DNA of 64,000 nucleotides from Blastocystis sp. Blastoise (lineage: Eukaryota; Protista; Bigyra: Opalinata). The translations under genes and the position numbers were made by a program. Shown here in pieces: positions 6,712-64,000 of this stretch (its first letter is position 1; every line of letters begins with the position of its first letter). The DNA lies in contig JBBPEB010000024.1 in the NCBI GenBank assembly GCA_039096225.1, forward strand, positions 186,001-250,000. Direction: 5' to 3'. Below the pieces are notes generated by a model, which made no database searches, had not been told where the DNA came from, and worked only from the letters and a program-made list of their open reading frames with translations.

Positions 6712-8019
6712 ATGAATTCAAATATTCCAGAAATAACTCCTGAAATTCAAAATACAACTGCAGCTCCTGTTACTAGCTCGTATATTCTTATCATACTGCT
6801 TCTAAATTCTCTAGTCGTAGAATATCCTCACGCATTGCCGAAAGAAACAGACTCGACCAAATAGCTTCAAACAATTTGACTTTGAATAAACGTAAAGTCA
6901 CAAAGATTCCAGACTCTGAGAAAGAAAAGCTAACTGAGTTATGGGCTATTCATGGCTATAGGTGGACTCCTGAAGACTACTCTCTTGAACTTAATATAAG
7001 GCTAGATGTTGTTAAAAGATATGTTAGAAACCTAGCGAATAACATCCCGTTAATCAAAGAAAGGAAGAAACGAGGTCGTCATACTATTATTACTCCTCAG
7101 ATGTCCCGTAAGATGAAGAATATGTTTATAATAGATCCAAAGTTAACATTAGGTGATGCTTGTATGGTTATCTCTGATAGTTCCTCTACGTCTATATTTG
7201 AGCGTGATATAGATACATACAATGTTTCTCTAGAGGTTCAAACTGCTGCAATTGAAGAATTACGTAATCTAAAAGGCTCTAATACTCCTCCTGTTTGTAG
7301 TAAATCTACAATTGCTAAACATTTACACAGTAGTAAAATGGCAGATCATGTTGGTACATCATTCAACATTAAAAAACTATATAAGCGTGGCCCCAATTCT
7401 AATAATGATGAAAATAAACAAAGAAGAAAAGATGTATATGAAGAAATAGATAGAATGATAAGTAATGGTATAAGAATTATATATATTGATGAAGTACACT
7501 GGTCCTTTAATAATTATACTCAGTATGGTTGGGGTAAGACAGGAGAGAAAATATATTATCAAAATATCTCAAAACGATTATCGTTAACTGCTTTAGCTAC
7601 AATTAGTTCTAGTGGAGTTGGATATACTGAATTATTAGGGAATACTGTTACTGGTGACGTCTTTTGTAATTTTCTAACAAATGCCTTAGAACATTATGTT
7701 GCTGATGATGCTAGTACTTGTATTTATATGGATAACGCCCCCGTTCACCAAAAAGGTAGGATCAATGATATATGTAATCAATTTAATGTTAGTGTTATTT
7801 ATGGTCCTAAATATACACCTGACATGAACCCAATTGAAAACATTTTTGGTATTTGGAAACAAAGAGCAGAAGTAAAAATTAAGCAATGGAATGGATTAGA
7901 TGATTTTATAGAAAAGATAAGTGAAGAATGGAAATCTATCGACGCTGCTACTATTCGAAAGTCAATTAATCATGTTATGGGTGAAATACGTGAAATGGTC
8001 AATGCTGATAAAGATCTTT

Positions 8020-8021
<2 letters not shown>
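6712..8021 (+). CDS. Tc1/IS630-family DD34E transposase, 2 exons
   Basis: ATG at 6712; a 35-nt intron at 6780-6814 restores the frame into ORF 6876-8021. Motifs IYIDE, YMDNAPVH, YTPDMNPIENIFG; 34 residues between the second D and E. Confidence 0.9.
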
Positions 8022-17721: not shown

Positions 17722-20700
17722 TTAGTAAAGAGAATAAAAATTTTGGAAATATATAAAAATTAAGTATTCATAATATATATATACATAAACAGCATCATCA
17801 ACAACTAAAAGATTTGATTGAATGACCCATTCAATTGGTATAACATAATCTAATTCAAAATCATTCGGATTAGTTATTACTCCATATAATTTATTGCAAG
17901 AGAACATGAAATTTTTGAAGTGTTTACCTATAATAAATAAACTATCACATACCTTTATTATTTCCTGGACTTGTAAAACTGAAATTGCTTCTGAAGATCT
18001 AATATTCCCTTTTTCATAAAAACAAAGAAAACTACAGTCAATTTTCATTACTTCTGGCTTAAATGAAGATTCAATAAAAACATTTGTATTATATACATTC
18101 TTTAGCATCATAAATATTTGTTTTCTTATAAGTAGATTACTTTTTTCTTTGGTATTTATATTAAAATCGTTGTTACAAAACGGAAGATTCATTATTTGAT
18201 TCTCTAAACAAAATCCATAAATTACTTTGATATCATCTTCACTAATAACCATCGTCTTATGAAGATTATATTTCCATTCTAATGAAAAGTTTGCATTTTT
18301 ATTATTCTGATTTCGTTTTGTTAAATTGGTTACAGACTTGTGTTGGTATGCAAATTCTGAAAGAATTAATTTGTTCATTAATGATGTGCAAGTATATCTT
18401 CTATTTAAAAGAAATCTCCTCATCATAGAATATGAACGTTCATACGAGGATGTAGAATATAATCTAAGACTGCCTAAATTCTGAATATTCTGTGGAATAT
18501 GAAGTAAAGAATGCAATTGTGTATTAAAGAGTATTGAGGGAAGAGTTAACTCGAGATATAAGACTATTTTTGTTGCCTCCATTTTCAATATATTAATTTC
18601 TTCTTGTGTGTATTCTGTACGTATTGTAAGTGTTTTGTTAATAAAAGAAGCCAAAAAGAAAACAACTGGAATAAGAAGACAATCATTTTCAGAGTATCCT
18701 TCTAATAACAGAGGTATTACTTTACAGAAAAAAAATATTCTATTATAAATAGAAGATGAATAGTAATCTATTTCATTGATCATATATGAATACGATCCAA
18801 TAGGAGATTTTTTGATTCTATTTATTTTACCAATTATATTATACATCGTAGAAAGAATATTTTCATTTAGAAATAGAGGAATACTATTATATATTTCTTG
18901 TTTAGTTAAACCAGATTTAATTTTATAAAATTTAACTAATGAATCCATTATGATTTTGTTATCAACTACTTTCTTATGATGGAATAATATCTGAATTAAA
19001 GTATCACAAATATTACCATATAAATGCATCCAGTCTAACGGCATACTATTGAATATACTATAGTAGCTCAGATACTTTTCATATAATGACTCAACTGGAG
19101 ACAGACCAAAGGAACCAATGTTTCTATCTTTTTTTATGTCTATTTCATTTCTTATTTCAATATCAATTGAATCGAAAAAATCTGGTTGTACATATTCCTT
19201 TTTTATAGTAATTGGCTTATCTAATATAATCTTGATATTAGAAGATAACGATTCTTTGGAAAGTTTCTTTTCTTCTTTTGAACATGAATACATTATAGGA
19301 AGAGATTTATTAACCATAAACGATCTTTTATCTGAATTAACTGAAGAAAAACATGTTTTGATTCCATTCTTTGTTCTTGCCTCCTTTCTTACTTTACAAT
19401 ATCTGCAGAAGAAACTGCCTACTTGATTATTCATATGAATTTGTTTTGCAGCTTCAGGAAAATCGCAGCAACTACATAATAGGATGGCTTTAGCAGTGAC
19501 ATATTTATTTTGATTTTTATCATAGAATTTAATACCATTCTCGTAAAGATACTTGAATTCCTTGAGTAAATACTCCATAATAACTTCATTAATAGCTGAT
19601 TGAGTAACAGAATAAAAGTAATGACTTTTAGAATCTAAACATTGTTCTAAGGAATTATTTAACAGTAATAACGATATAGGAGTTGTGGATTTATTTTCTG
19701 GATTTTTTGAGTGATTATAGAGAGCTACACCATCAACAGACATGGTAAAAGTAAAAACATAGTCACATGTTTTTAAAATAGGTGAAACATAAGAAGAAAA
19801 AAGTTCCGAATAAAATAAGGGATTGATATGATGATTATTAGGGATTCTTTTTGTTTCTAGGTAGGACAATATTTCTGTAGATTTTATGAAAGATAATTCT
19901 TGCATTTGTTTTTCGTCTGATAATAATGAAATAATTCTATAACACAGTGGATACATAATTACTTTCTGAATAGTACTATCTATATATTGTGTTGAATATT
20001 AACTAAAGAATATAATATTGAATAATTATATATAAAAGCTAATAACAATTGCTTTATTATTTATTATATTAAAAAAATAAAAAAGATATATATTTATATA
20101 CCTGTTCCACATAAACACTTGTTGTATTCCTTAGATAAGCGCGGCTCAAGATGGCTAATATCGAATTGAATAACCTTTTGGCATTTTTGACATATAAACA
20201 GTGTAGCTCTATTTTTATAATTATCCATGTATTTTCTTTTCATTTTTCTTAACATTTTTTTACCATTTTCTTCCAAAGTAATATTATTTAAATTGATTAT
20301 ACTATCTTCTTGACATTCTTTAAGAAACAAAATCATGTTTTCTATTTGTGATTCTGTCATTGAATTCTCATGAATAAGATTCATTAATCGTATGAAAAAC
20401 CTCTTATTTTTGCTATCATTTTGAACTTCATCATTCTAAATAGTTTATTTATCAACAAATATGAATGTATATACATTTTGTTTTTGTTCAATGGAATTCA
20501 ATAAACAATTTATATAACTATCTATATAAAAAGAAGATAATCATGAGTCAATATATATATATACCTTCTGAAATCTGACAAGTTTCCGTAAATAATATAT
20601 CATCTATTTGTAATATTTCGTTATCATTTGATATCGTATCAATTCTTGTTGATCCATTTTGAATATGTTTGTGACTTTTTTTATTTGATCTTTTCTCTCT

Positions 20701-25378: not shown

Positions 25379-26656
25379 ATGTCTCTCTTTTTCGCTGACG
25401 TTACTAACCCTGATTCACGTGCTGATTACTTGCTTTCCGTTCCTCCTATTATTCCTCAGCCAATAGAATCTGTTGATTTTGAACTTGCTCCATCTGTTCC
25501 AATGATTTTTGAAGCTCTTCCTCCTATTCAAACTGCTAATAACCCTGTTGCTACAATTCCTACTGTTCCTATTGCTCCTAAACGTATTTATGTTAAAGTC
25601 ACTCAAATTCAACGTGATGCGTTAAGAAGATACTATTCTGAACATGGTGAAACATGGTCTGTTCTTACTTATTCGACTAAAACTGGTATTAAACCGAAAC
25701 AAACATCTGCTTTCATTAAGATACTTCGTGATGGTGGTTCTATTGATTTATCAAGTGTGAAGAAAGGAAGAAAGAAGTTAATTACTGTTAATGGTTCTAT
25801 AAGATTAACTGAGATGATTAGAGAAAACAATAAGATAACACTTACTGAAATGTCTACGAAATTAGCTACTCCTGAACCAATAAATGAAGAAGAAGATAAT
25901 CAAGGAGAAGAAGAAGAAGATAATGGTGTTATTGATGCTTCTATTTCTACTATTTCTAGACATCTTCGTTTTGGTATGGAAAAAGATGGTCAACCTGCTT
26001 TTACTATTAAACTTGCTTCTCATAGAGAACCTGCTAGTAATACTGCTGCTAATAAAGAAAAGAGAATAGAAGTTATTCAAAAATTGAACCTATTAGAATC
26101 TCGTGGTCATATGATAGTGTATGTTGATGAAAGTCATTGGGAAGTTGGTTTAGTTCATCGTCATTTGCGTTCTCCAAGAGGTGAAAAAGCATTTGATAAT
26201 TGTAACTCTCGTTCTTTAAGTATAACTGCTCTTACTTCTATTTCTACTTTAGGTGTTGGCTATACTGAGTTAATTCATGGATCCGTTAATGCTGAAATCT
26301 TTCAATCCTATTTAAGTGGATTGTTGAACTCCCTCAATGGTACTGGTAGTCACGTGATTTATTTGGATAATGCATCCATTCATCACGATCCTGGTGTTGC
26401 TGCTAAGGTTAGTGAAGCTGGTCATCAACTAGTTTTTGGAGCTCCTTATAGTCCTGAACTTAATCCAATAGAAAAAGTCTTTGGATTCTGGAAAACTCGT
26501 GCTGAAAATGATTTGAAGATCTTTACAAATCTTGAAGATTTGGTTAATAAGATTGGAAATCATTTTCGTTCGATTAATCCAATGGAAGTTCGTGCAACTA
26601 TCCAAGGAACTATCCGAAACGTTTGGCCTAAGGTTATGAACAGAGATGATATATAA
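25379..26656 (+). CDS. Tc1/IS630-family DD34E transposase
   Basis: First ATG at 25379. Motifs VYVDESH, YLDNASIH, YSPELNPIEKVFG; D-34-E spacing; clearly related to the 6712 transposase. Confidence 0.92.
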   Translation: MSLFFADVTNPDSRADYLLSVPPIIPQPIESVDFELAPSVPMIFEALPPIQTANNPVATIPTVPIAPKRIYVKVTQIQRDALRRYYSEHGETWSVLTYSTKTGIKPKQTSAFIKILRDGGSIDLSSVKKGRKKLITVNGSIRLTEMIRENNKITLTEMSTKLATPEPINEEEDNQGEEEEDNGVIDASISTISRHLRFGMEKDGQPAFTIKLASHREPASNTAANKEKRIEVIQKLNLLESRGHMIVYVDESHWEVGLVHRHLRSPRGEKAFDNCNSRSLSITALTSISTLGVGYTELIHGSVNAEIFQSYLSGLLNSLNGTGSHVIYLDNASIHHDPGVAAKVSEAGHQLVFGAPYSPELNPIEKVFGFWKTRAENDLKIFTNLEDLVNKIGNHFRSINPMEVRATIQGTIRNVWPKVMNRDDI

Positions 26657-27007: not shown

Positions 27008-30000
27008 TAGAGACTTCAAATTTCATTCCCGCGGGGAATTTTGAGTTATGTTTGCTCAGTTATGGCTTTTTTCTGGAAAATGGTTAAACATAACTGATTA
27101 TTTTTTATACTAAAGAACGATTATATTCAGTTTTCCTCGGTAATATAAAATGGATCAATATGATATGGCTATAATAAACGAAGTAAAAGTAATTTCAGGC
27201 AAATATTGTTGCTCATTAAGAAAGATGATTGTTCTTCTTTCAACATTTTTAGAAAATACAGTATATATTTAAATTTATAGATGATTTCATGTTGTTATTA
27301 TATAACACATTAATTGTTATAGAATGAAACAAGTATTGTTTTTCCAAAAAATCAGAATTATGGTGCTTATTTATATGGTCATAACAAATTGGCTAATATC
27401 ACGAGCTTGGCATATTTATTTGTGGTTCCAACAAACTTTGACATGTGGTTAACAAAGATTGGAAGATTATATGGAATTTGCTTATTATGTGGAAACAAAA
27501 TTAAATGTGACTGTAATGGCTGCCTTCAATCTGCTTCTATTGAAAAGCATTTAAGAGCAATGCATGGAATGAAGCTTGGTATTTTCAAACAGTATGGCAC
27601 AATTCAGGAATACTTTGATGGCTTTCACAGCGATAAGTTACCCAATGAAAATAGAAACTCTATACTAATGTACTGCAATAAGAAAAAACAGTTAGAAGAT
27701 GATGATGATGATGAAAATGAAATAGTTTGCTTGCAAACAACTACTGTTCCTCCAAAACGTCCTTTACAACTATATCCAAGTCATCCCTCTATGCAGTCAA
27801 ATAAAACTATATCTAGTACAAATGGGAAAAGAAGATGTACTATTACACTGTCTCCTCAATATTCTATTAGTGATGCTGAATGTGTATTATTTATGTGTAA
27901 GAACCGAATCTCATTTCAAATTATGAAAATACCTGATAGTACACAATACTTGAATTTTATTAGCTATTATAGAGCTACTATTGTCATTAATAGTCTTACT
28001 ATTGACTTACAAGAGTATATTAAAGAACAGCTGAAGAATGTAATCTATTATTCATTATCCTCTGACATATGGTCACGTCATAATAAGAAGATTATATCAT
28101 GGAATTATTACTATTTTGATAAAGATGGATATCATAGTGGCCTGTATTCCTTATTACCCGTTAAATCGTCTACTGCACAAGATATACTAGAATCATTAAA
28201 TAAAATTATTCCTAATAATAATTTAGTCTCCGTTACTACTGATAAAGCCCAAGGTTATAATGCTGCGTTGTCGTCGAATAACCATTTTGGTTTAATTAAA
28301 ATAGATTGCTTCTCTCACTTCTTGAATACTGTCTATACACACGCAATTGGGAAACCAAATACTAAAGAATTATTCGCTAAAATTAGATCCTTGATTCAAG
28401 AGATAAGAATAAACAAAAATTATGATGGTTTTTGCACATGTGTTCAAGCTATTACTGGAACTAAACCACGAAAACCATGTCTTGATTGTCCTACAAGATT
28501 CTACAGTATTTTGGCACCTTTACAATGGATTTATCAGTATGGAGCTTATGCTATTAGTTATCTAAATAACATTAAAAACAAATGCATATATGATAATTCG
28601 TTAATATGTGAATTCTGCTCATTTATTCCTTATTTATGTGCATTAAATAAAAGTCATTTAATGCTTAGTTGTTATTCAAAGCCTACAGCTCATTTAATTC
28701 TTCCATTCATTAATGAATTGTCTAATATGTTTAATAAAAGTCCAGCTGATGTTATTGGATATGAGTCTTCATTTATTTGTATTAATGAATTTGTTCAAAG
28801 TGTTAGATATGATTTTGGAAGAATTGGAACTGGCAATTTCTATTATAATAATAATCAACTTGATTTTTTATCATGTTCTAGTTCTCTATATCTATTTCTA
28901 TCAAACATTATGAAATGTAGTTATGATAATAATCAAAAGGAATCATCTATTTGTCCTGAGATAGAGAAATGGAGGAAGGTATTGAATGATACTTTATGTT
29001 ACGAAAAGAGTATTAATGTAGAAATCGTAATAAAAAAGATTGAGACACTTCGTAACGCATGTGTTGATAAAAATATTGTGCCAATATCAGAAATTCTATT
29101 ATGTGAATTTGATAAACGTGATGAAAAATATCTTCAACTTGTTGATAGAGGTGTTAAATTCTTCTTCTTATCAGATGCTACAAATCATAATGATTATATT
29201 AATCAATATCGTTCGAGAAGAGAAAAGTCTGTGTCGATATTAAATACAGACAAGGTAAGTCCACTTGAATCTATTAATAACAATATTACAAGCAATGATG
29301 ATATAGTTGATAACAATGATTATTGTGATGATTATGATGATCTACGATTTGAAACCTCTCTTTTTAATGCAAGAGAAAAATACTTTAACTGTTCTGTTGG
29401 TTCGAATAGTAATAATAATAGTATTCTTGATGAAGAAGAACTTAGTAGTAGTGATGAAGAATTTTATGAGTTTTATAAGAGAACAAGTGATTCTTATGAT
29501 AATGAAGACGATAATCAAATATTTACTATACCAGAATGCGAACTATTTACATCAGAAAAAAAGTTTAATATTGATTCTGATATAAAGTACTACTTCTCAT
29601 TTGATTTATATTTTAATGAGTTCTTTTATGATGAGAATGTTATACGTATATTATCAAGATTTTTATCACCTCCAGCAACTGAAATAGGAGATGAGCGTGT
29701 CTTCAGTTACAGTGGATTATTAGATAACGGTAGAAATACGAATATGAAATCTGAGAAATTTTGTGGTATAACATATATTTCTCGAAACGAAGAAATGGTA
29801 CTTAGTATGTTAAAATCTAAATAACTTTTGTTTCTTTTTCCTTTGTTAATTAATATGTAATTGTCTTTTTCTTATTGACTATTATGTTTAGATAATGATA
29901 ACTTGATTAAATATATTTTTTGGAACAAATTGTAATTTACATTGTTGTGATCTTATAATGGAATATGAGCAAAATTATTTATTGTTTCACTATATGATCG

Positions 30001-30397: not shown

Positions 30398-32931
30398 ATG
30401 AATATAACTACTTACTTTCCTGTTGATGACACTACATCAGTACTTTATATAACTATCCTTTATTATTCCATCCTTATATATAGTCAAGATGTATTAAAAA
30501 GCAGCAATTAAATATAAAAGAATGTGATAGAAATGAGATCATTCAACAAGCTAAGTCTACATGTAGTATTGTATTAAATATTGATGAATCCAACAAAAAT
30601 AAAGAAACGCCAGTGCAAATTAAAGAAAAAGAGTATATTAGTTATTATATATATATTATTCTGTTACTTAATTAATTACATTCTTTATCCATATATTAAC
30701 ATAGTATAAACGAACAAGAACAAAGTGTAGAGTCCAATGAATCACTGAAGAATGATGTAAAAAAGAAGGCACTTATCTTTGTTAATAACTGTATGAATGG
30801 TAGTTTAGATGATGATGAAAAGCACTTCCTTCGTAGAAAGAATGCAAAAGGTATTTATGAGTATAATTCTGATTATTTGGTTTATGGTTTTATTCAAAAT
30901 TATAAGTCTCAACAAGGTCAGTGTTTAATATGCAATACTATAATTAAAAGAGTTCAACCTTCTAGATTCTTCACGCATTTTTTGAACCATATTCAAACTG
31001 AAAGTCCAACTGTAATTATTAAATTTTCATATCAATACTTTGAAGAATTGTATACAAAGCTACAGAGATCTCAATTACTTCTTAAAAAGAATACAATAAG
31101 TAATGATATGTTAATAAAATTTAGTTATGGCATTAGTAATTTAGTAGCTAAAACTGGTCTTCCTTATACTACTGCTAATAAACTTATTCTTCCAGTTATT
31201 AGATTATGGGAAAATTTAAATAAAAGATCTTTTTATTCTATTATTATGTCTGCAAATACTGTGAAACGTCGAATTAATGATATTAATGATTTAGAAGAAA
31301 TTAGTACTATTAATGAATTAAATAGTAGTCCCCTTTTTTCGTTACAACTGGATGAATCAACTGATATTAGTCATTCTTCTCAATTAATTCTGTTTGTTAG
31401 ATACATGTATAATAATAAATATAAAGATTCTTTCCTATGTATTCTTCAATTACAATACAGTAAGAGTGGAAGTAGTATATTTGAAACCGTATCTAATTAC
31501 TTCAGTGATCATGATATTCAGTGGAACAAATGTTTAAGTGTTTGTACAGATGGCGCCTCAGCCATGAATGGAAATTATAACAGTTTCAAAACATGTGTTC
31601 TTAAAATACAACCTTCCTGTCTTTTTATTCATTGCTATTTACATAAGGAGGAAATATGCTCTTCTGTTCTTCCTGATTATTTTCAAAAATACTTTATAGA
31701 ATGTTCACAAATTATTAATTCTATTACTCAATCAACTAAATGTTCTGAAAAACTGCTTAATTTACAACGTAGTTTAATTGTTGGTAATGATGAATACAAA
31801 AAGAAATATAATAAAGAAACTCTTCCTGATAATATATCTAATTCTTCTGTATTAAGTTTTAATGAAGTTGATGATTTAGATTTTCAATTTGAAGAAAGTG
31901 ATGAAAACTATGAAGATGATATTATTCAATCTTATGACGAAACTACATCTAATACTGTGAAAACTAATGGCTCGAAAGTTACTAATAAAAATAATAATGA
32001 AAATACAAATTCTAAATCCTATCGTTTATTACACTATAGTTCTACCAGATGGCTGAGTAGATATCAGTCAATTAGCAGATTTAATATGTTAAAGTCTACT
32101 ATTGAAACAATTCTATTGGAAGATAAAAAGAAGGATTTATATAGTAAAATTACAGATAAGGAGTTTTCCTTATCAATGATATATATCGAAGAAATTACTG
32201 AACTGTTTTATGATGTTAACAAGAAGATGCAAGGAAAGAAAGCTATTTTTCTAGAATATATTATGTTAATAAAAGAATTATATATTAAGCTCTGTAATAA
32301 GTTTAATTCTCTCTGTGATGATAAAATATCGGTCTTTCCTACTGTTGCCTCTTTTCTTAGAAAAAATATTGATATTAGCGTTAAATTTTTTATAAATATC
32401 ATTACTGATCATATTGATACGTTATTAACAAATATTGAGAATTATTTCCCTGAAGTTATGTCCTTAATCGAGTTTGAAGTATCACTGATGAAAAGTGCTG
32501 AAAATACTTGTGACCTAACTGTTCCAATAATACATAGCATGCCTAGTGTAATAAAAAGCGTAGAAGCCTTAAGTGTAATAAGAATCCTCAAACAATGATT
32601 GAAAAGTTGTGTCGATCTGAAGAAAAACGATTATCTACTATTATTAATATGCCAACTACTTGTATATCACAAGAAAAATGTTATGGAAATATTATTTCAA
32701 AAAATTCTAAATATGAGATTATTTGCGCTATTAATAGTTATAATCATTTATTAATAACAGGAGAATTAAGAAACCAAATTATTAATGGATGTACTTATTA
32801 TGATTCGTTTTCGGGGAAATGTACAATTGAAAATGAAAACAAAAAAAAAAGAATTTGTTTTTTCTGGTATGATTGATATCAGAATTTGTGATTCTTATTT
32901 TTTTGGTTATATTTCTGGTAATTTTTCTTCA

Positions 32932-35681: not shown

Positions 35682-37116
35682 ATGAGTTCTAAACCGTCTT
35701 TGGTGTATGATTCACCAACAAAAATGATAAGTAAACCAGAAAAAGCAGAAAAAAATATGAAACAACATATAATGAATTTAAAGAATTTATAGTAGCTAAT
35801 AAATACCAATCTGAGATGGAAGCCTTAATGCCTTATATGCTTTACTTGAAACGAAGAAAAAATCTGCATCCAAGAACAATTAAAACCATGTATTCTATAT
35901 TGAAAAAATCAATTACGGATGAAAATCTTGTTAAGGCAGATGATTGTATTAATGATAAAATAAATAGATGGATTAAGAATCAAAGCAGAGTATCTTCCCC
36001 TCCAAAGCAAGCAGCTGTATTTGGATTTGATTCTATAATTCAGTTTTTGACGGAGAATAACAAGGATCTAAGTATGGTCAACTACAAGCAGCTATGAGTC
36101 TAGCCATTAGTGGAGGATGTAGATGTGAAGAACTACATGGGCTACATTATAATGATCTTCATGTATTTATATATTACTATTTTTTTTATATATAGTGGAT
36201 GCCAGATAAATTAGAGGTTTTTATTCAGCATTCCAAGGTTGACCAGGCAGGAAAAGGTTTCTCATTCTATGTGCTAAACTCAGTTGGCAACATCATTAAT
36301 CTTTATAGTATTATTAAGAAGTACCATGATCAACTTAACGATATATCACATCAAAATCCTCCGTTATTTATTTGTGTAAGAAATGGTAGATTCATTAAGC
36401 AACCAGTTGGAATTAATACCCTTTACTCCTTTCCATTGAAAATCACTAATCATCTTAATATAGAAAACAAGGAAGAATTCTCAGGACACTCATTTAGAAG
36501 AACATTTGCTACCATTCTGGCTACTAGAGGATTGAATGCTTTTGAAATAATGAAGGCTGGACGTTGGGCTTCTGCTGAAACTGCTAAGAGATACATTGAT
36601 TATAGTCAATTAACTAGGTTCAAATCAGCTGCAGCATTAGCATTTAGTAGTTCTCTTAAGCCAGTACAGTGTCTTGATAATTCAAATGGATCTAGATGTA
36701 TTACTAATAATACTAGTGATATTTATCATGTAGAAGATAAAAAAGATATTAAAGAAAGTGATGATACAATAAAATGTTTTCCAAGAAAAGAAAGAAACGA
36801 TGTAGAAGTATATTATGAAGCCAATAAAGATGAATAATGTTCCTTTACAAAAGCTGAATCTAGTGTTGAAGCTGAATCTAGAAGTAGAATGTATGATGTG
36901 TTATTCAAGAATCAAATTGATCAATTTAATATGTTAAATAAAGCCTATTTTGATCTTGCTGATAGAGTAATAACTAAATTTGCAGGAATAAGAAATGATT
37001 GCAAACAATCAACTTCTAGTATTGATGAAAATACTTCAAAAACATCTATTGCATCAAGCCAGGTTACCATCAGAAAGCTTAGTTTCTCAGAGTCAGAAGA
37101 CTCTTTCATGTGCTAA
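35682..37116 (+). pseudogene. Crypton-type tyrosine recombinase, disrupted
   Basis: GGCRCEELHGL (catalytic R), HSKVDQ (K), SGHSFRR (H-x-x-R), GRWAS, KRY. 33-nt intron at 36163-36195; frameshifts near 35750 and 36062; in-frame TAA at 36835-36837 with the frame continuing to 37116. Confidence 0.82.
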
Positions 37117-54770: not shown

Positions 54771-55465
54771 GAAGAAATAGATCTGATTCAATTTCTTCTT
54801 CTTCCTCTTCCTCTTCCTCCTCCTCTTCCTCTTCCTCTTCATCTTCTTCTTCATCTGGAATGGATATAGAAGAATCAAATATTAATAATAATAATAATGA
54901 TATTGATATAGATAATATGCCTTCTATTATTCCTTCTATTATCAGAAATTTAAATAGAAATACAAATCCTCTTCAACAAATTAATAATAATAATAATAAT
55001 AATATTTCTCCTCCAAATAATAATCAAACTATAAATCAATCAATTCCTAATAATAATATTAATAATACTATAAATGATATTGATTTATATTTATCTCTTA
55101 ATAATCATATTAATAATCCTATTATTCCTAATTATCTTCATATTCCTATTCAAGATAGAATATATCCTTATAATTTAGATAATCTTGATTTACCTACTGG
55201 AATAATAGAAAACAATATGATGAATACATTATTTAATTCTAATAGAAGAGTATTAACATTAGATTCTTCTATTTATTCTATAAATTCTATTCCTAATAAT
55301 ATTCCTAATTTTCCTACAGAATGTAATTGGATATTTCCTTGTAAACCAGATTTCTTTATTGGTTATAATGAAATACGAAATCATGAGAAAGGAAAAGTAT
55401 GGAAATATTTAAATGAAATACGTGAATGTTTTAATCATATAATATTAAGGGTTAAATCCCGATAG
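52463..55465 (+). CDS. Large intronless low-complexity protein (N/D/S runs, TPI tripeptide repeats), truncated by the insertion at 55448
   Basis: 1000-aa ORF with ACTCCTATA-type 9-bp repeats at ~53815-54320. Its stop codon lies inside the TIR starting at 55448; the true start is uncertain. Confidence 0.6.
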
Positions 55466-55590
55466 TCAAGTTTTCAGAAATTTATTTACGAGTTGACATT
55501 TGTGTCCTAATTTTTTACGAGTTGACATTTGTGCCTTAATTATTTACAAGTTGACATTTGTGTCCTAATTTTTTACGAGTTGACATTTGA
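55448..55590. repeat. TIR of the 49246 MITE family followed by four 29-bp direct repeats
   Basis: AGGGTTAAATCCCGATAGTCAAGTTTTCA, then ACRAGTTGACATTTG at 55488, 55517, 55546 and 55575. Confidence 0.9.
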
Positions 55591-56447
55591 TTCTTCCGTT
55601 CTTCGAACTGCAGAAGGGGGTATGCAAACCCCGCATAGAGTCTGCGCGACGCGCGCAGCCATAAGCGGGGAAGTCATCCCCCCTTTTTGTTCTCGACGGA
55701 AGAATTAATAACATTTCTGAAGTAAAATAACCATGGGAGTGTAGGGTAGTGTGTGTGTGTATTTATTTTTTCCCATGTTTATTTATTTTTAATTTATTTG
55801 TGTTCCGATTCCAACGTGAAACGTAAAGTGATCAAGGAGAAACTCATAGTAATCATAAAAGAAATAAAATACACACTCACACCCTCCCCTTTACAGGGAA
55901 TATTCATAGGAAATGACTCCATCGTTGGTAAAGTGAGTAAAATAATCACGGGAATACAGAAAGAAATACGAAAAGAAGCACAGAATGTGCTAAATAAACA
56001 CACACCCCGACCCTCCCTTTATATAGAGAAAAGATGAAATGGATGGTTCTATCTAAAAAGAAATAATAAAAATAATCACGGGAATATATAAAAATAAAAA
56101 TGTATGTATAGTGATCAATAAATAATATAAAAAGTCATGATAATCATAAAAAATTTATATAAAAAAGAGTAAAGTGATCAAGGTATGTATTTATAGTGGG
56201 TGAAAGAAAAGCTGGTGGTGGTGTGGTCTTGTAAAAAGATGTACCCACCACCACGATTATAACGAGAGACTTTTGGAAACAAGGGTGACCGTTATGGAAA
56301 TAGGATGCGTCATCGTGAATTGTCCAATCAAATTGCTTAAAAATGTAAAAATGAGGGATTTTGGAACACAAAAACACAATTATATTGGGGAAACTGGGGA
56401 AACTAATTGTGTTCCAGTGGTTTTAGGTGGCGGCATGTATATCAATT

Positions 56448-56495
56448 TTCTAGAATATTCTAGAACATTCTCGAAACTTCTAGAACATTCTAGAA
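56448..56495. promoter_or_regulatory. Heat-shock-element-like array (10 alternating nTTCn/nGAAn units) upstream of the recombinase
   Basis: TTCtaGAAtaTTCtaGAAcaTTCtcGAAacTTCtaGAAcaTTCtaGAA. Confidence 0.75.
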
Positions 56496-56583
56496 CATGA
56501 GAATCTTAGATATTTTATTTTGATTTTCTTATGTATTATTCTTTTGAAAATAGAAGTTTTAGAGATTCTACTTGAGAAAATCA

Positions 56584-57519
56584 ATGAAAAATACAAATTA
56601 TGACAAGTATCTTTTGGTTATACAGAATTCAAATTATTCTGATATTTGGAAAAAACGTTTAACCAATTATTTCAATTTATATATTTTCCCATTACCATTT
56701 AAAAAGTTCTCAGAATTCTTAAAGAATCCTTATTCATTCATGGATTATATGGTAAATGAACGTAAAATCAAAATTAGTCCAATGAAATCGTTATGTGAAT
56801 TGATTTTATTTATTATACGTAATGTTTCTTCATTAAATAAAGAAGGTATTTTAAATAAATGGTGTGAATTTTATGTGATTATCAATTCAATGTATGAAAA
56901 ATATCTGGATAATAAGAAACGCACTTTGATTCAAGATCTTATTAAAGATGGTATTACGACTCCTTATTTACATGAATATCACGATAAATTAGAAAATTAT
57001 AATCCATTACGATTAATATTAGATTTTTACTCCTATCTTCCTCCTGCTCGTGCTGATTATGCTCAATTATTCATTCTATCACCAGAAGATACTATTGATC
57101 CAACTATTCATAAGAATTATATTGTTTATGATAAAGAGAAACACACTGGTTCTATTCTATTAAATGATTATAAAACTGCTGGTAAATACTCTACAATTCA
57201 ATTAGATGCACCAAAAGAATTGATTGAAGATCTAGAATTACTCTTAAAAAGAAATCCAAATCGTAAATTTATATTTGAATCTTCTGTAAGAACTGGATTT
57301 ACTACTAAAGCATTTGATTGGTTTGTGAATAAGCATTTAAAACAAATCCATCCAAAATTGACCATTAATGCATTAAGAAAATTATATGCTACAACTACAA
57401 CCAATACATTCCAAGATATAGAAAATTCTGCTTCTGCTTTATGTCATAATGATTATACACATATTAATTCTTATGTATCTTTAGAAAATAATAATTTATT
57501 TAAAAAATTAATTGAATAA
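56584..57519 (+). CDS. Tyrosine recombinase of the virophage/PLV type
   Basis: YLPPARADY (R), NYIV, LLNDYKTAGKY (K), NALRK (R), ALCHN (H), NSY (Y); first ATG at 56584. Confidence 0.85.
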   Translation: MKNTNYDKYLLVIQNSNYSDIWKKRLTNYFNLYIFPLPFKKFSEFLKNPYSFMDYMVNERKIKISPMKSLCELILFIIRNVSSLNKEGILNKWCEFYVIINSMYEKYLDNKKRTLIQDLIKDGITTPYLHEYHDKLENYNPLRLILDFYSYLPPARADYAQLFILSPEDTIDPTIHKNYIVYDKEKHTGSILLNDYKTAGKYSTIQLDAPKELIEDLELLLKRNPNRKFIFESSVRTGFTTKAFDWFVNKHLKQIHPKLTINALRKLYATTTTNTFQDIENSASALCHNDYTHINSYVSLENNNLFKKLIE

Positions 57520-57592
57520 TTTTATGTTTTTATGTTTGTTTTGTTTTAATTTTGAATATAACTAAACAACTAGTAATAAAAGGATATAAAAA

Positions 57593-57967
57593 TTAATTAA
57601 AAGGTAAGAAAGATAGATTATTATTATTATTTTGATATTGATTTTGTTGTTGATTACTTTTCATAGTTGGCATAAACATATTATTGGGTTGAATAAGATT
57701 CTTATCATCTTGATATTGATTCTCATTCTTCATATATTGTTTATCCAATAGCATTTCAAGACGTTGATGAATCACAGGATCATCTATATAAAGTAACATG
57801 TTTCTACAGTAACTCAATTGCAAATCACTAAGATTCTTGTTGTTATTATTATTTAAAAATTGTTCTAATAGATTTGCTATTTCATTCTTTTTGGATTTAA
57901 TTCCTTCTTCTTTTAGATTCTTCATCACACGACAAAAATAAGAATAACTAAGATATTTCTTGTTCAT
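57593..57967 (-). CDS. Hypothetical viral protein
   Basis: 124-aa ATG ORF in the compact viral array. Confidence 0.6.
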   Translation of the reverse strand: MNKKYLSYSYFCRVMKNLKEEGIKSKKNEIANLLEQFLNNNNNKNLSDLQLSYCRNMLLYIDDPVIHQRLEMLLDKQYMKNENQYQDDKNLIQPNNMFMPTMKSNQQQNQYQNNNNNLSFLPFN

Positions 57968-58069
57968 TATTTAAATTAACCAATGATTAAACAAAACAAA
58001 TTAATTATATAAAACACTAATATAATAAATTAAAGATTCTACAAATAGAGCCAGTTCAAAATGAATGTT

Positions 58070-58225
58070 CTAGAATGTTCTAGAACGTTTCTTGGACATA
58101 TAAAAGTAAAGTAAAATATATATAATAATAAGAACAATTTCAATAACTGACAATATTTCATTTACATTCTCTAAAGTTTCTGCACTACGATCTAAGTAGT
58201 AATTGCCAAATCGTTTCTTTGTCAT
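58070..58225 (-). CDS. Small single-pass membrane protein (viral, hypothetical)
   Basis: ATG at 58225; hydrophobic ILSVIEIVLIIIYILLYFYM followed by SKKR. Confidence 0.5.
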   Translation of the reverse strand: MTKKRFGNYYLDRSAETLENVNEILSVIEIVLIIIYILLYFYMSKKRSRTF

Positions 58226-58311
58226 TATAGTATTAAATAATAAACAAAACAAATTAATTATATAAAATATTAATATAATAAATTAAAGATTCTAGAATAT
58301 TCTAGAATGTT

Positions 58312-58932
58312 TTAACAAGGCATAAGATTTCCATTAGAAAGTAAATAAAGTAAAGAATAATAAAAGCAACCATTTGCATTACTTGTAGTTTTTTGGTGTT
58401 GAATAGGATTATATTGAATATTATGATTTTGAATAAATGATTTTGAAAAAGTAGGTTCATTTCCTAATGATGAATAGTGTTCTATGTTTTTATTACCATT
58501 ATAAATAACAGCTTCAAAATGACCATTATAAGGATCACTAGGACTTTCATGAAAGATCATATTAAATTTAGTTTGATCTTGATCTATATTTTGTTCAAAA
58601 TCATCATAACTATTATAATAATTATAAGATTGAGAATTCGTTTTATTTAATTGTTTCATAACATTTTCAGCACGATCACAAGCAACAGAAGAGGTAGGTT
58701 TATTTAAATAAGCATAATTATATAATTGAGATATTAAAGAATTTGGTATATTACAATATTGAGATAGAGTTTGTTTGAAATTATCAGGGGATCTAGGAGT
58801 AACATGACGAGTTTTATCAGATATAATAGGATTATCGCAATTCATTGAATTTTGAATTAATTTCTCATCTTTACTCTTTACCAGATCCCCTCCCCTGAGT
58901 TTTTTGATAACATATATTTCTTTTTTTTCCAA
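58312..58932 (-). CDS. Adenain-like (clan CE) cysteine maturation protease, probably made by -1 frameshift from the upstream ORF
   Basis: GHFEAV (H), EHYSSLG (cf. YFDSFG), IQHQ (oxyanion Q), NGCFYYS (C). The ORF-track start is TTG inside the upstream ORF; the first ATG is at 58845. Confidence 0.75.
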   Translation of the reverse strand: MEKKEIYVIKKLRGGDLVKSKDEKLIQNSMNCDNPIISDKTRHVTPRSPDNFKQTLSQYCNIPNSLISQLYNYAYLNKPTSSVACDRAENVMKQLNKTNSQSYNYYNSYDDFEQNIDQDQTKFNMIFHESPSDPYNGHFEAVIYNGNKNIEHYSSLGNEPTFSKSFIQNHNIQYNPIQHQKTTSNANGCFYYSLLYLLSNGNLMPC

Positions 58933-60524
58933 AACAATTCGTCACCTGTATTTAATGTTTCATTATTATCTATTTTCTGTTTTATAATTTGTAATTGTTT
59001 TAAATCAGCCTCTTGTATTTTACGTTTTTTTCGTGCCACTCCTGCAGGTATTATAAAATCTGTATAAAATGATACTAATGGATTCAAATCACCACCTCTT
59101 TTCTTTTTAGCTTCTTTTCCTCTTCTCATTCGTTCTAAGAATTCTGCTTTACTTAATTTAACTCGACCACCATAACCTCTACGTTTAGCTCTTCTTGCAG
59201 CTATTCGTTTATCCCTTTCATCTTCTTTCCATTTTCTATCGACTTTCTCTTTATCATTTTGAGGGAAACCATAAATCTTATAAGGATAACTTTGTTCATC
59301 ACGAGGCATAGGTTTATAAGGTTGAGGAGGTTGCGAATGTTGAGGAGGTCGAGGTTGAGTAGGTCGATCAACTTGTTGTTGTGGAGGTGGTGGAGGTTGA
59401 ACAACGGGTTGTGGATGTAGTCTATCATCTTCATCAAGAGCATCTTGCATTTCATCAGCTACATCATAATATCCTTCAAACATTTTATTTATTGTATTTC
59501 CTGAACCTATTTGTTTTTTCATTTCATTTAATGCTTGTTGACGTTTTAATTTTTCCATTTCAAATTCCATATCATTTAATTCACTTGATTGTTGTGCCAA
59601 ATGTGTATCATAATAAGCTTTTCTACCTTTAGCAAAAGAATCCATACCTTTATCAACTACACCTAATAGAGCTGGTGCATAATCCATCAATCCGCTCCAG
59701 AATCCACCACCTCTTTTTACTCTTAATATACCATCACCACTTTGAGCTGAATCTAAATCTATATATTTTGGTATAATTGAAGGTCTTAACATTCTTCTTA
59801 ATTTTGGATTATTAATTATTTTCTTATTTTTAATTGCATTCATAATTGCTGAAGCAACTGATATAGGAATCTTTCCACCACGTTTAATTTTATGTTCATA
59901 GAATCTTTTGAATTCATCATCAAGATCATGATGACCGTCACCAACATATTGAGCTAAAATAGCTAATGCATCACGAGCTTTTCTATTAGCTTTTTTATCT
60001 ACAATAGCATCTCTTATATCTAATACATTTCGTTGATACATATCTTTTACTTTATTTTTAATTGCATCACCAATACCAGAACCTTGATTATTCTCTAATT
60101 TATTGATTTCTGATTTATTTGGAATAATACCTCTACCAGATTTACGTCTTGGTTTACATGGATTTAATACCTTATATTGACGATCTTCACCATCTATTTT
60201 ATCTTCTTCTGGACCAGCTGCTTTCATTACACCTTTACCTGCTGCTCTAGCACGAATTAAAGCACCATTTCCTTGTGGAACAGCATCTTTACCAAATGTT
60301 TTAGAGCGATCTACATAATCATCTTCTTTACCATCATGTATTTCTTTACTTTCTAAAGTAGACACAGGCATAGATGAATTTGGACCTATTTCATGAAATA
60401 TTGGATTATATTGATCCATTTTATGTAATGGTTGTGTATTATATCGCCTATATTCTTTTCCAGTTGAAATTAAATTCATACCAAAAGTACCAGGACTTGG
60501 CATTCCTAATATACAACTTTGCAT
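58878..60524 (-). CDS. Putative virion core/polyprotein with multiple GG/GxG protease sites, basic segments and an amphipathic helix
   Basis: About 12 sites (QGNG, AGKG, SGRG, QGSG, VGDG, KRGG, SGDG, KRGGG, IGSG, YGGR, KRGG, SGEG); GGGFWSGLMDYAPALLGVV; R/K-rich C-terminal part. Confidence 0.7.
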   Translation of the reverse strand: MQSCILGMPSPGTFGMNLISTGKEYRRYNTQPLHKMDQYNPIFHEIGPNSSMPVSTLESKEIHDGKEDDYVDRSKTFGKDAVPQGNGALIRARAAGKGVMKAAGPEEDKIDGEDRQYKVLNPCKPRRKSGRGIIPNKSEINKLENNQGSGIGDAIKNKVKDMYQRNVLDIRDAIVDKKANRKARDALAILAQYVGDGHHDLDDEFKRFYEHKIKRGGKIPISVASAIMNAIKNKKIINNPKLRRMLRPSIIPKYIDLDSAQSGDGILRVKRGGGFWSGLMDYAPALLGVVDKGMDSFAKGRKAYYDTHLAQQSSELNDMEFEMEKLKRQQALNEMKKQIGSGNTINKMFEGYYDVADEMQDALDEDDRLHPQPVVQPPPPPQQQVDRPTQPRPPQHSQPPQPYKPMPRDEQSYPYKIYGFPQNDKEKVDRKWKEDERDKRIAARRAKRRGYGGRVKLSKAEFLERMRRGKEAKKKRGGDLNPLVSFYTDFIIPAGVARKKRKIQEADLKQLQIIKQKIDNNETLNTGDELFWKKKKYMLSKNSGEGIW

Positions 60525-60599
60525 TTTTTTATTTCAATTATAAAATTATTTATAAACAAAACAAATATATTAATAAAAAATAAATTTAACATTAAAAAT

Positions 60600-61193
60600 T
60601 TATAAATTAGTTAAATCAATAATAGTATCATTACTATTAGTATTCTTCGTAGATTTATCGATGACTTTAATAGAACGAGCATATAAACCAATATAATACT
60701 TGTTATTATAACGATGAATACCATGTATTGTAAATAATACTTTACATAACGTATTTGGTGGAATATACTTTTCACGTATTTCTTCGTAAGTTAACTTAGG
60801 ATCTTTACCGATATTAATCTTCTTATCTCTTTTATCAGTAATATCAATAGTAACATTCTTCGATGCATTAATAGGTACTTTAATTGTAATCTTATACTTA
60901 CCATTATCCATACGTACAAAATTAACAATATCACCATCAGGACATAATTCACATAATTTACGATAAAGTTCTTTATAAGCAGTTAAGAATACTTGATTAT
61001 CATCTTCAATTGTTAATAAAGTCCATTTATCACGTGTAACAATATAACCAAATAAACATGGTGTAGCATCAGTAGAAATACATACACGATGATTATTATT
61101 TAAAAGAACAGCATTTTCTTTGGTGTCATCCCATTGTAAATTAAAGTTAGAAGTATCAAGAATAGTAGGTTTTTTAAATTCAGTTGTAGACAT
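60600..61193 (-). CDS. Probable OB-fold single-stranded DNA-binding protein (T7 gp2.5/NCLDV-like)
   Basis: 197 aa with a beta-strand pattern and C-terminal CKVLFTIHGIHRYNNKYYIGLYARSIKV; recognised by pattern only. Confidence 0.55.
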   Translation of the reverse strand: MSTTEFKKPTILDTSNFNLQWDDTKENAVLLNNNHRVCISTDATPCLFGYIVTRDKWTLLTIEDDNQVFLTAYKELYRKLCELCPDGDIVNFVRMDNGKYKITIKVPINASKNVTIDITDKRDKKINIGKDPKLTYEEIREKYIPPNTLCKVLFTIHGIHRYNNKYYIGLYARSIKVIDKSTKNTNSNDTIIDLTNL

Positions 61194-61270
61194 TTTTAGT
61201 TAAGTATTTAGTAAAAATATAAGTATTTTAATACTAATATTTTACGATATTCTTTTCAAATGAATCAATT

Positions 61271-61318
61271 TTCGAGAAGGTTCTAGAAGGTTCTAGAAGG
61301 TTCGAGAAGGTTCTAGAA
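61271..61318. promoter_or_regulatory. HSE-like array (10 units) upstream of the SSB gene
   Basis: TTCgaGAAggTTCtaGAAggTTCtaGAAggTTCgaGAAggTTCtaGAA. Confidence 0.75.
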
Positions 61319-61511
61319 AAAAAGAACACTTGAATAATCTAATGGAAACATTTTAACGGAATCGAACCATGATACTGTGGTTACATATTTCTTTAATAGA
61401 TCCATTAGACCATTCAAGAATTCTATTTGAAACTATTCTATTCTCCATTTAAACTTTGTGTAATTAATTTAAAAAATAAACAAAACAAAATAATTAATTA
61501 AATAAAAATAA

Positions 61512-63061: not shown

Positions 63062-63171
63062 TTATTTTTCTTGTTTATTTTTCTATTTTTACTTATAAAC
63101 TTGTAAAAAATCATTGAAAATTGTTTTGTTTATTGTATATACATTTAAAACACTAAAGTATAAAAAGGATG

Positions 63172-63301
63172 TTCTAGAAGGTTCTAGAAGGTTCTAGAAT
63201 GTTCTCGAAGGTTCTAGAACATTTAAAAATATAAAGTAATATTTACTATTATAGAATGTTCTAGAAGGTTCTAGAAGGTTCTTGAATGTTCTAGAAGCTT
63301 C
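63172..63301. promoter_or_regulatory. Two HSE-like arrays (10 units each) upstream of the primase
   Basis: 63172-63219 and 63254-63301, both with strict 5-bp alternation of TTC and GAA. Confidence 0.75.
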
Positions 63302-63387
63302 CAAAACTGACTTCTAGAATCTTTAATATATTATTTGTTTTAAATGTTGTATTATAATTATTTTCATTATTTATAAGTCAAATAATC

Positions 63388-64000
63388 ATGGAAAATTCAC
63401 AAATTCATTTTGTTTATACTTTTGGTTCCTTTAATCATGATAATTCAAAAGATAATCATAGTGAAATTATTATACCAAATCCATTACCATTTTATAAAAG
63501 TCTATTTACTAATTATCAAAATCCAAAAGAATTATTACATTATATTGATTGTACTCCTTGTAATACATCAACTAATTATAGAAGATTATGGTTTGATTTA
63601 GATTATCACCAAATATCTGATGATTTTTCTTTTCTAACAGATTCTTTTATTCATGAATTTATTGAAGAAATATGTAATCATTGTATTCATTATTATAATC
63701 AAGAATTTATTTCGCTTGTGTATACAAAGAAAGAAGTGAATAAGAAGACAGTTCATAATGAAATACATTATTCATGGGGAATTCATATATATACGAATTG
63801 GTTTGTAAATGGTGATTATTTATTTTTCTTATATAATAGTATGATTCTGAATACCAAATTGGTTGATTTATGTAAAACATATAATTTAGATATAAAAGAA
63901 TTCATTGATTATAATGTTATTGGTAAACCCAGAAAGAATAATGGTTGTATGTTTCTTGGTTGTAGTAAAGATAATTCTCCATCTACTTATAAATTATATG
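63388..64000 (+). CDS. AEP-superfamily primase (probable D5-like primase-helicase N-terminus), partial
   Basis: Open frame from ATG 63388 to the window end (missing from the ORF track). RLWFDLD (motif I), WGIHIY (motif II), FIDYNV (motif III), MFLGCSK..Y. Confidence 0.82.
   Translation, partial: MENSQIHFVYTFGSFNHDNSKDNHSEIIIPNPLPFYKSLFTNYQNPKELLHYIDCTPCNTSTNYRRLWFDLDYHQISDDFSFLTDSFIHEFIEEICNHCIHYYNQEFISLVYTKKEVNKKTVHNEIHYSWGIHIYTNWFVNGDYLFFLYNSMILNTKLVDLCKTYNLDIKEFIDYNVIGKPRKNNGCMFLGCSKDNSPSTYKLY

Follow-up and report, generated by a model that had tools for sequence, protein, structure and literature searches.

The locus described here raises the question of how a protease is translated when its reading frame overlaps the end of the preceding gene and has no ATG in the overlap. 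It lies on the minus strand of a 64,000-nucleotide stretch of DNA from Blastocystis sp. Blastoise (contig JBBPEB010000024.1), which is called the window below and in which positions are counted from its first letter. An earlier note, made from the letters alone, had proposed that a viral core polyprotein is joined here to its maturation protease by a programmed -1 ribosomal frameshift.

A multicopy virus-like element

The two overlapping frames belong to a virus-like element that is present in about 20 repeats in the genome of this gut protist. It seems to begin near 55.5 kb and runs past the window end at 64000; the part inside the window includes no capsid or ATPase genes. At 55453-55700, probably the left end of the element, a GC-rich hairpin (-54 kcal/mol per 110 nt) comes after five tandem copies of a 29-bp unit. 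Distinct database copies number 21 for the 548-aa ORF, 16 for a 175-aa ORF, and 10 for the recombinase-like ORF; the proteins of the element match only hypothetical proteins of Blastocystis sp. Blastoise and metagenome proteins. The element is integrated and multicopy and carries both a recombinase-like gene (weak Pfam match only) and a predicted maturation protease gene; by resemblance, it is Polinton-like. The following features frame the junction:

56584..57519, plus strand: tyrosine-recombinase-like ORF of the same element (weak match to Pfam PF00589, E 0.085)
60600..61193, minus strand: ORF like viral DUF5871/DUF2738 clusters (ESM Atlas 0.94-0.95)
60554..60565, minus strand: boundary motif TTTGTTTTGTTT before the core ORF
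60524-58878, minus strand: 548-aa basic ORF, likely a core or virion polyprotein (pI 9.6, K+R 19 %)
58312..58899, minus strand: protease in the -1 frame, with 195 aa past the shift and a clan CE fold (His109, Ser125, Gln151, Cys160; protease residues are numbered from ATG 58845)
58242..58253, minus strand: boundary motif TTTGTTTTGTTT after the protease stop

The clusters resembled by the DUF5871/DUF2738-like ORF are 93-100 % viral and carry these families on 10-18 % of their members, with a recognition score below the usual bar. Sites of TTTGTTTTGTTT are present at 61489, 60565, 58253, and 58000 on the minus strand and at 57535 and 26718 on the plus strand. An identification of the motif with the downstream gene element of the host was dropped since, according to the accessible text of PMC10690189, tortoise isolates show no enrichment of that element; TTTGTTTTGTTT is treated here as an element-specific gene boundary. 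Between the core and protease ORFs, the motif is absent, as had been noted earlier: no match with two or fewer mismatches was present from 60553 to 58254. Its occurrence on both sides of the pair and its absence in between fit a single transcript, whether the motif marks starts or ends. The motif is part of a 57-nt duplication (95 %; 57988-58044 and 58241-58297), the two copies of which enclose a short ORF.

A canonical signal at the junction

On the minus strand, the 548-aa ORF ends with ...TCA AAA AAC TCA GGG GAG GGG ATC TGG TAA, and the junction is made up as follows:

58899..58905, minus strand: slippery site A_AAA_AAC, a heptamer in phase with the 548-aa ORF, the stop of which comes six codons later
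58892..58898, minus strand: 7-nt spacer between the heptamer and the stem start at 58891
58786..58891, minus strand: predicted stimulatory stem of 11 + 6 + 6 bp around a 52-nt AU-rich interior
58891-58881/58796-58786, 58876-58871/58802-58797, and 58869-58864/58811-58806, minus strand: the three helices of the stem (RNAfold)
58878..58880, minus strand: 0-frame UAA within a 4-nt bulge
58888..58899, minus strand: LRGG directly past the shift, a likely release site (GG|D; predicted)
58882..58884, minus strand: CTG overlapping the stop (CUGGUAA), a rival start, aligned with the Met of the P0002 family
58843..58845, minus strand: first ATG of the protease frame, a rival start

The in-phase heptamer, the 7-nt gap, the ATG-free overlap in the -1 frame, and the LRGG|DL that follows the shift, all reported in the earlier note, were borne out by the sequence, and RNAfold returned its three helices with the UAA in the bulge as drawn. 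The predicted stem has a free energy of -33.8 kcal/mol (z -3.71), which none of 200 shuffles equaled, and all 23 of its pairs have a probability of 0.73-1.0 in a 301-nt context. No stop interrupts the -1 frame between 58941 and 58312, where it terminates; its earliest ATG is at 58845, and a slip would give a predicted product of 737 aa (542 + 195 residues). The arrangement has the parts of a canonical eukaryotic -1 programmed ribosomal frameshift (PRF) signal, namely an in-phase X_XXY_YYZ, a predicted stable structure after a 7-nt spacer, and a long conserved -1 frame (195 codons) that lacks an upstream AUG of its own. Spacers of about 6-9 nt are given for such signals in the accessible text of PMC3835772. 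Against Rfam, nothing came near the gathering score, the single miRNA match being at chance level (19 bits versus 72), and no strong pseudoknot partner was found for the interior loop (best duplex -5.5 kcal/mol).

The junction signal is real and beyond chance. Twenty ORFs of the window, with 6912 codon positions, contain 32 in-phase X_XXY_YYZ heptamers, which were compared using z scores from 30 shuffles each. The most stable downstream fold among them is that of the junction, at -33.8 versus -22.5 for the runner-up, and only at the junction is the -1 frame open for at least 100 codons (195, the next longest being 32). One other heptamer reached a z of -4.8, yet its -1 frame is shut after 3 codons. 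Upon synonymous recoding with the codon usage of the element and the peptide kept fixed, 0 of 2000 sequences folded as well as the junction stem (z -5.0), while 14 of 2000 did so when codons were used uniformly; the lowest z among 45 control blocks was -2.89. Of 5112 segments of 110 nt taken across the 64 kb, the 15 most stable do not include the stem, and third-position G/C in its arms (5/16) is not clearly higher than in the rest of the junction segment (4/23). From the rate of 32 heptamers in 6912 codons, it is estimated that a heptamer would stand 5-9 nt before a given stem by chance in about 1 of 100 cases.

The break is shared by all copies

In the database, the 548-aa protein has 21 copies (542-583 aa), all of which end in KKYMLSKNSGEGIW at the same stop. 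Their last 14 residues contain no variable column, as against 23 in the preceding 56. The fused 737-aa form, the length of which is within the range searched, was not present among the 21 copies. As the stop is the same in all of them, the break is not a one-off error; with a mutual similarity of 83-100 % and a single organism name, the copies are not independent of a systematic one.

The earlier note had itself named the possibility that the two frames are a single fused ORF misread at a homopolymer. Such a homopolymer would have to be one base short in every copy, or an ancestral indel would have to have been copied together with a dead protease. A relative in which core and protease share one frame does exist, the overlap holds four homopolymers (A8, A6, G4, and G4), and the acid of the catalytic triad seems to be replaced. 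In the one sequencing run of three that matched (0.29 of words), contigs agree with 58670-58822, on the side of the 3' arm, with 0 differences and none covers 58897-59277. A 72-nt skip at 58624-58697 in a single contig of depth 2 was set aside. Against an artefact or decay stands the sequence WKEKK in 9 of the 21 copies, in which the A8 run is broken and the C-terminal end is unchanged; it is unlikely that the A6 or G4 runs are systematically called too short, and the 11 other homopolymers of like length in the eight ORFs of the element show no break. In a metagenome family, the core ORF stops at the matching place in 14 of the 15 listed members (of 20). Under the artefact or decay reading, but not under frameshifting, it would also have to be explained why a stem is present and why the 195-codon frame is intact and 52-64 % identical to relatives. 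Of the readings considered, this one is the least probable.

Relatives with one frame and with two

Proteins with the C-terminal part of the core and the protease in one frame were found in P0023 (ENA, 391 aa) and P0003 (Logan, 248 aa), which are two of the three members of their cluster, the third being a fragment. Their core part is 42 % identical over 79 aa (E 4e-11). P0042, P0044, and P0045 (533 aa) also consist of core plus protease, but as NCBI models that may hold introns they were left out of the natural fusions. The stop of the metagenome core proteins, together with the P0002 protease, which is called as a stand-alone ORF in 15/15 members, indicates that split forms occur elsewhere too. 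The core tail TLK of P0056 would be compatible with U_UUA_AAR five codons before the stop, a weak back-translation given that 21 of its 278 tripeptides are compatible with a heptamer. DNA of related loci was not found in viral contigs, metagenomes, or prokaryote genomes, nor by tblastn of phage records.

A similar fusion could also arise if a short intron in the overlap were removed from part of the mRNA. Fifteen GT-AG pairs of 26-176 nt would give an open fusion, and in a second family, core and protease are joined in the NCBI models P0041 and P0043, though not at the same point in each, which implies introns, whether real or predicted; introns of tortoise Blastocystis are described as longer and more variable than 30 nt in the accessible text of PMC10690189. 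The best donor (CAG|GTGAC, 58945) and the best acceptor (CTCAG|, 58895) are, however, not paired with each other among the 15, and none of the 21 models in the family of the window is spliced to the protease. P0041 and P0043, although 95 % alike, are joined differently and extend into a homologue of the next ORF, as would be expected of over-merged predictions. Splicing would also have no need of the heptamer, and it is considered improbable, if slightly less so than an artefact. A GT-AG pair at 58881-58793, the top of the first helix, was discarded, as its removal would make a stop; it is not one of the 15 open joins.

Conservation of the -1 frame upstream of its first ATG bears on the question of initiation. 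Over the 13 residues that precede M/L-N/D-C-D, the -1 frame of the window is matched at 5-8 of 13 positions by P0002, P0013, P0003, P0023, and P0041, which are five relatives belonging to three families (p at most 0.0006 by shuffling). Just before this block, a GG is present in P0003/P0023 and in P0041, and in P0041 a Leu replaces the Met of ATG 58845. P0041 also keeps the peptides encoded by the two stem arms, GG and VTPRSP. The conservation of the 13 residues shows that translation of the frame extends upstream of ATG 58845, so that a protease starting at that codon drops out as the main route; the earlier note had listed such a start against its own proposal. In favor of that ATG is its A-rich context, which is like that of the recombinase start.

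The strongest rival is a stop followed by a restart at CUG 58884, in which the stem would aid coupling or have another job. This codon, with G at -3 and +4, aligns with the Met from which 5 of the 15 stand-alone P0002 members are called, and a start there would also account for the 13 conserved residues. It would leave without explanation both the in-phase heptamer at 7 nt, with its chance of about 1 in 100, and the GG that is conserved ahead of the CUG. In addition, the fused relative has Thr at the CUG position, and no boundary motif precedes the protease. Separate initiation, at the CUG or at ATG 58845, is unlikely, if less so than splicing.

The break in 21 of 21 copies, the relative fused in frame, and the conservation upstream of the ATG make a -1 programmed frameshift, as in retroviral gag-pro, the best reading of the locus and uphold in this respect the proposal from which the analysis started. 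Its probability is estimated at roughly 70 %.

A predicted clan CE protease in the -1 frame

The protease was modeled from an alignment of 11 rows with a pLDDT of 80, four other models giving 46-58. In three fold searches with this model, every top row belonged to clan CE. Matches were obtained with Ulp1 (E 7.6e-4), with the protease of a MELD virus as the top viral one (E 6.6e-6, TM 0.68 by target), and with the adenain of an adintovirus (E 8.7e-4). VIA gave Z 9.4 for OtDUB (rmsd 3.0, 120 aligned), 8.2-9.4 for CE-clan enzymes, and 7.3 for the adenovirus protease. For pS273R of ASFV, the values were E 5.7e-3 in Foldseek and Z 8.2 in VIA (rmsd 3.7, 128 aligned). No Pfam match to the adenain family C5 profile was present at E 0.1, the resemblance to adenain being one of fold.

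The catalytic His and Cys and the oxyanion Gln are present in the protease frame in the CE order His-...-Gln-Cys. H109 and Q149/Q151 are invariant and C160 is found in at least 90 % of the 11 aligned rows, one of which is truncated. Ser125 is invariant in 11/11 aligned rows and seems to occupy the place of the CE triad acid (Asp/Glu/Asn). Because of this Ser, protease activity is not assured; the invariant E111 could act as a stand-in acid, and Ser125 might possibly be part of a variant active site. From the model, activity as a clan CE protease is predicted and likely.

The likely core protein and its Gly-Gly sites

For the 548-aa protein, Pfam and PHROGs gave no match and the Atlas, which contains the sequence, no usable one; its likely core role is suggested by its composition, its GG sites, and its linkage to the protease. 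Its N-terminal 100 residues (60524-60225) are kept in P0043 and P0042 and are missing from the P0056 and P0023 proteins as called. GG sites are located at positions 216, 272, 452, and 477; the dipeptide is not enriched (5 observed versus 3.7 expected). A (V/L)(K/R)RGG site is kept in 5/5 families.

(M/L/I)xGG|X is the cleavage consensus of adenain. LRGG|D fits this consensus, but the sites in the core protein, three KRGG with Lys and not M/L/I at P4 and one GYGG, do not. A looser, ASFV-like Gly-Gly-X rule would fit the GG sites better than the adenain consensus. The kept (V/L)(K/R)RGG site and the LRGG|D past the shift make it likely that the enzyme cuts at Gly-Gly-X. Of the core polyprotein, its packaging, and its self-cleavage as pictured earlier, the basic composition and the conserved GG sites are observed, and the three roles would build on these.

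Proposed mechanism

The 548-aa gene and the protease gene would be transcribed together. Most ribosomes would read through the heptamer and stop at the UAA six codons on, which would yield the basic 548-aa protein, whereas a minority would pause at the stem and slip one base back on A_AAA_AAC to make the predicted 737-aa core-protease fusion. The 548-aa protein may be a DNA-condensing core precursor that is cut at Gly-Gly-X. By analogy with retroviral Gag-Pro, the fusion would carry the protease into the particle, and the protease would free itself by a cut at LRGG|D.

Comparison with known systems

The original comparison was with Gag-Pol. The retroviral frameshift is a proper analogue, although a closer one than Gag-Pol is gag-pro of the beta- and deltaretroviruses. 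The accessible texts describe A_AAA_AAC with a spacer of apparently 6-7 nt at gag-pro of MMTV, BLV, and HTLV (PMC3835772) and the joining of a structural polyprotein to a maturation protease by the gag-pro frameshift (PMC3835772, PMC2657110). The junction shares with MMTV, BLV, and HTLV-1/2 the heptamer, a 6-7-nt spacer, a downstream structure, and the fusion of a structural polyprotein with a protease. It differs in that it is part of a dsDNA virus-like element and encodes a clan CE cysteine protease instead of an aspartic protease, in its long irregular stem with a 52-nt interior where gag-pro has a compact pseudoknot or hairpin, and in the absence of a second shift into pol.

The earlier note knew of no such case in Polinton-like viruses or virophages. 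In the literature on frameshifting in Polintons and virophages and on core-protease pairs, with subscription papers scarcely covered, one relevant source was found. Using KnotInFrame, Penton extensions and Hexon-Adenain ("Hexain") fusions have been predicted in adintoviruses and related meldviruses (Buck et al. 2024 preprint, PMC11071296), and the accessible supplement has 12 "Hexain" entries, some of which are named Adabsco. In the accessible text, the Hexain claim takes up two hedged sentences, with no signal anatomy or tests (PMC11071296). Adenain frameshifts have thus been predicted before in adintovirus-like viruses, while a core-protease case was not found in this literature. A core-protease frameshift is, then, an idea with precedent in the Hexon-Adenain predictions. 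As far as that text goes, both systems have a predicted -1 frameshift from a virion protein to an adenain-like enzyme in Polinton-related viruses; the Hexain fusions involve the major capsid protein of viruses with animal hosts, whereas the partner here is a basic polyprotein in a protist element, with conservation among copies and a fused relative.

pS273R of ASFV is a SUMO-protease-like enzyme that cuts the core polyproteins pp220 and pp62 at Gly-Gly-Xaa, according to the accessible text of PMC8619059. It is similar to the protease of the window in its clan, in the likely cleavage at Gly-Gly-Xaa, and in fold, but it is encoded by a separate gene, where a fusion is predicted here. A Blastocystis MELD virus with PolB and an rve integrase has been described (Starrett et al., PMC8502044, accessible text). 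Like the present element, it is a mid-size dsDNA virus-like element, and a MELD-virus protease is the top viral fold match; it has the rve integrase where this element has a tyrosine-recombinase-like gene, and the accessible text of PMC8502044 mentions no frameshift. Few eukaryotic DNA viruses are known to frameshift, the herpesviruses being named in the accessible part of a 2021 recoding review (PMC8310308); that of PMC5009743 adds nothing further on DNA viruses.

Implications

Frameshifting has so far only been hinted at in Polinton-related DNA viruses. If the proposed reading is true, this would be the first well-supported case of a maturation protease dosed by frameshifting in a eukaryotic dsDNA virus, with intermediate states side by side. 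It would represent convergence on the retroviral Gag-Pro solution in a different viral realm and would offer a testable answer to the questions of how the small fixed dose of protease in Polinton-like particles is obtained and what the protease cuts. We would tentatively suggest, with somewhat less than even confidence, that Blastocystis Polinton-like viruses evolved the Gag-Pro solution independently, as an in-frame fusion in P0023/P0003 and as a frameshift at the present junction and probably in two further lineages. Such proteases are overlooked or wrongly spliced by gene callers: the 177-aa protease had no match by exact look-up in a 15-billion collection in which 21 copies of its partner are present.

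Other features of the window

In the P0041 and P0043 models, the protease is followed without a break by a homologue of the 124-aa ORF at 57593-57967 (25 % over 75 aa, E 2e-8), which reflects a conserved gene order together with either a real fusion or over-merging. The ORF at 63388-63999, cut by the window end, has the motifs FDLD and GIHIY, which we take to be primase-like; it has no Pfam or PHROG support. ORFs at 4623-5522, 7101-8021, 17722-19956, 25379-26656, 27443-29824, and 30793-32598 are presumably DNA-transposase-like and one at 36199-36837 presumably recombinase-like. Arrays of TTCTAGAA with a 10-bp period, which in our view resemble heat-shock elements, are located at 56431-56513, 58053-58089, 58275-58311, 61256-61336, and 63155-63314, none of them before the core ORF.
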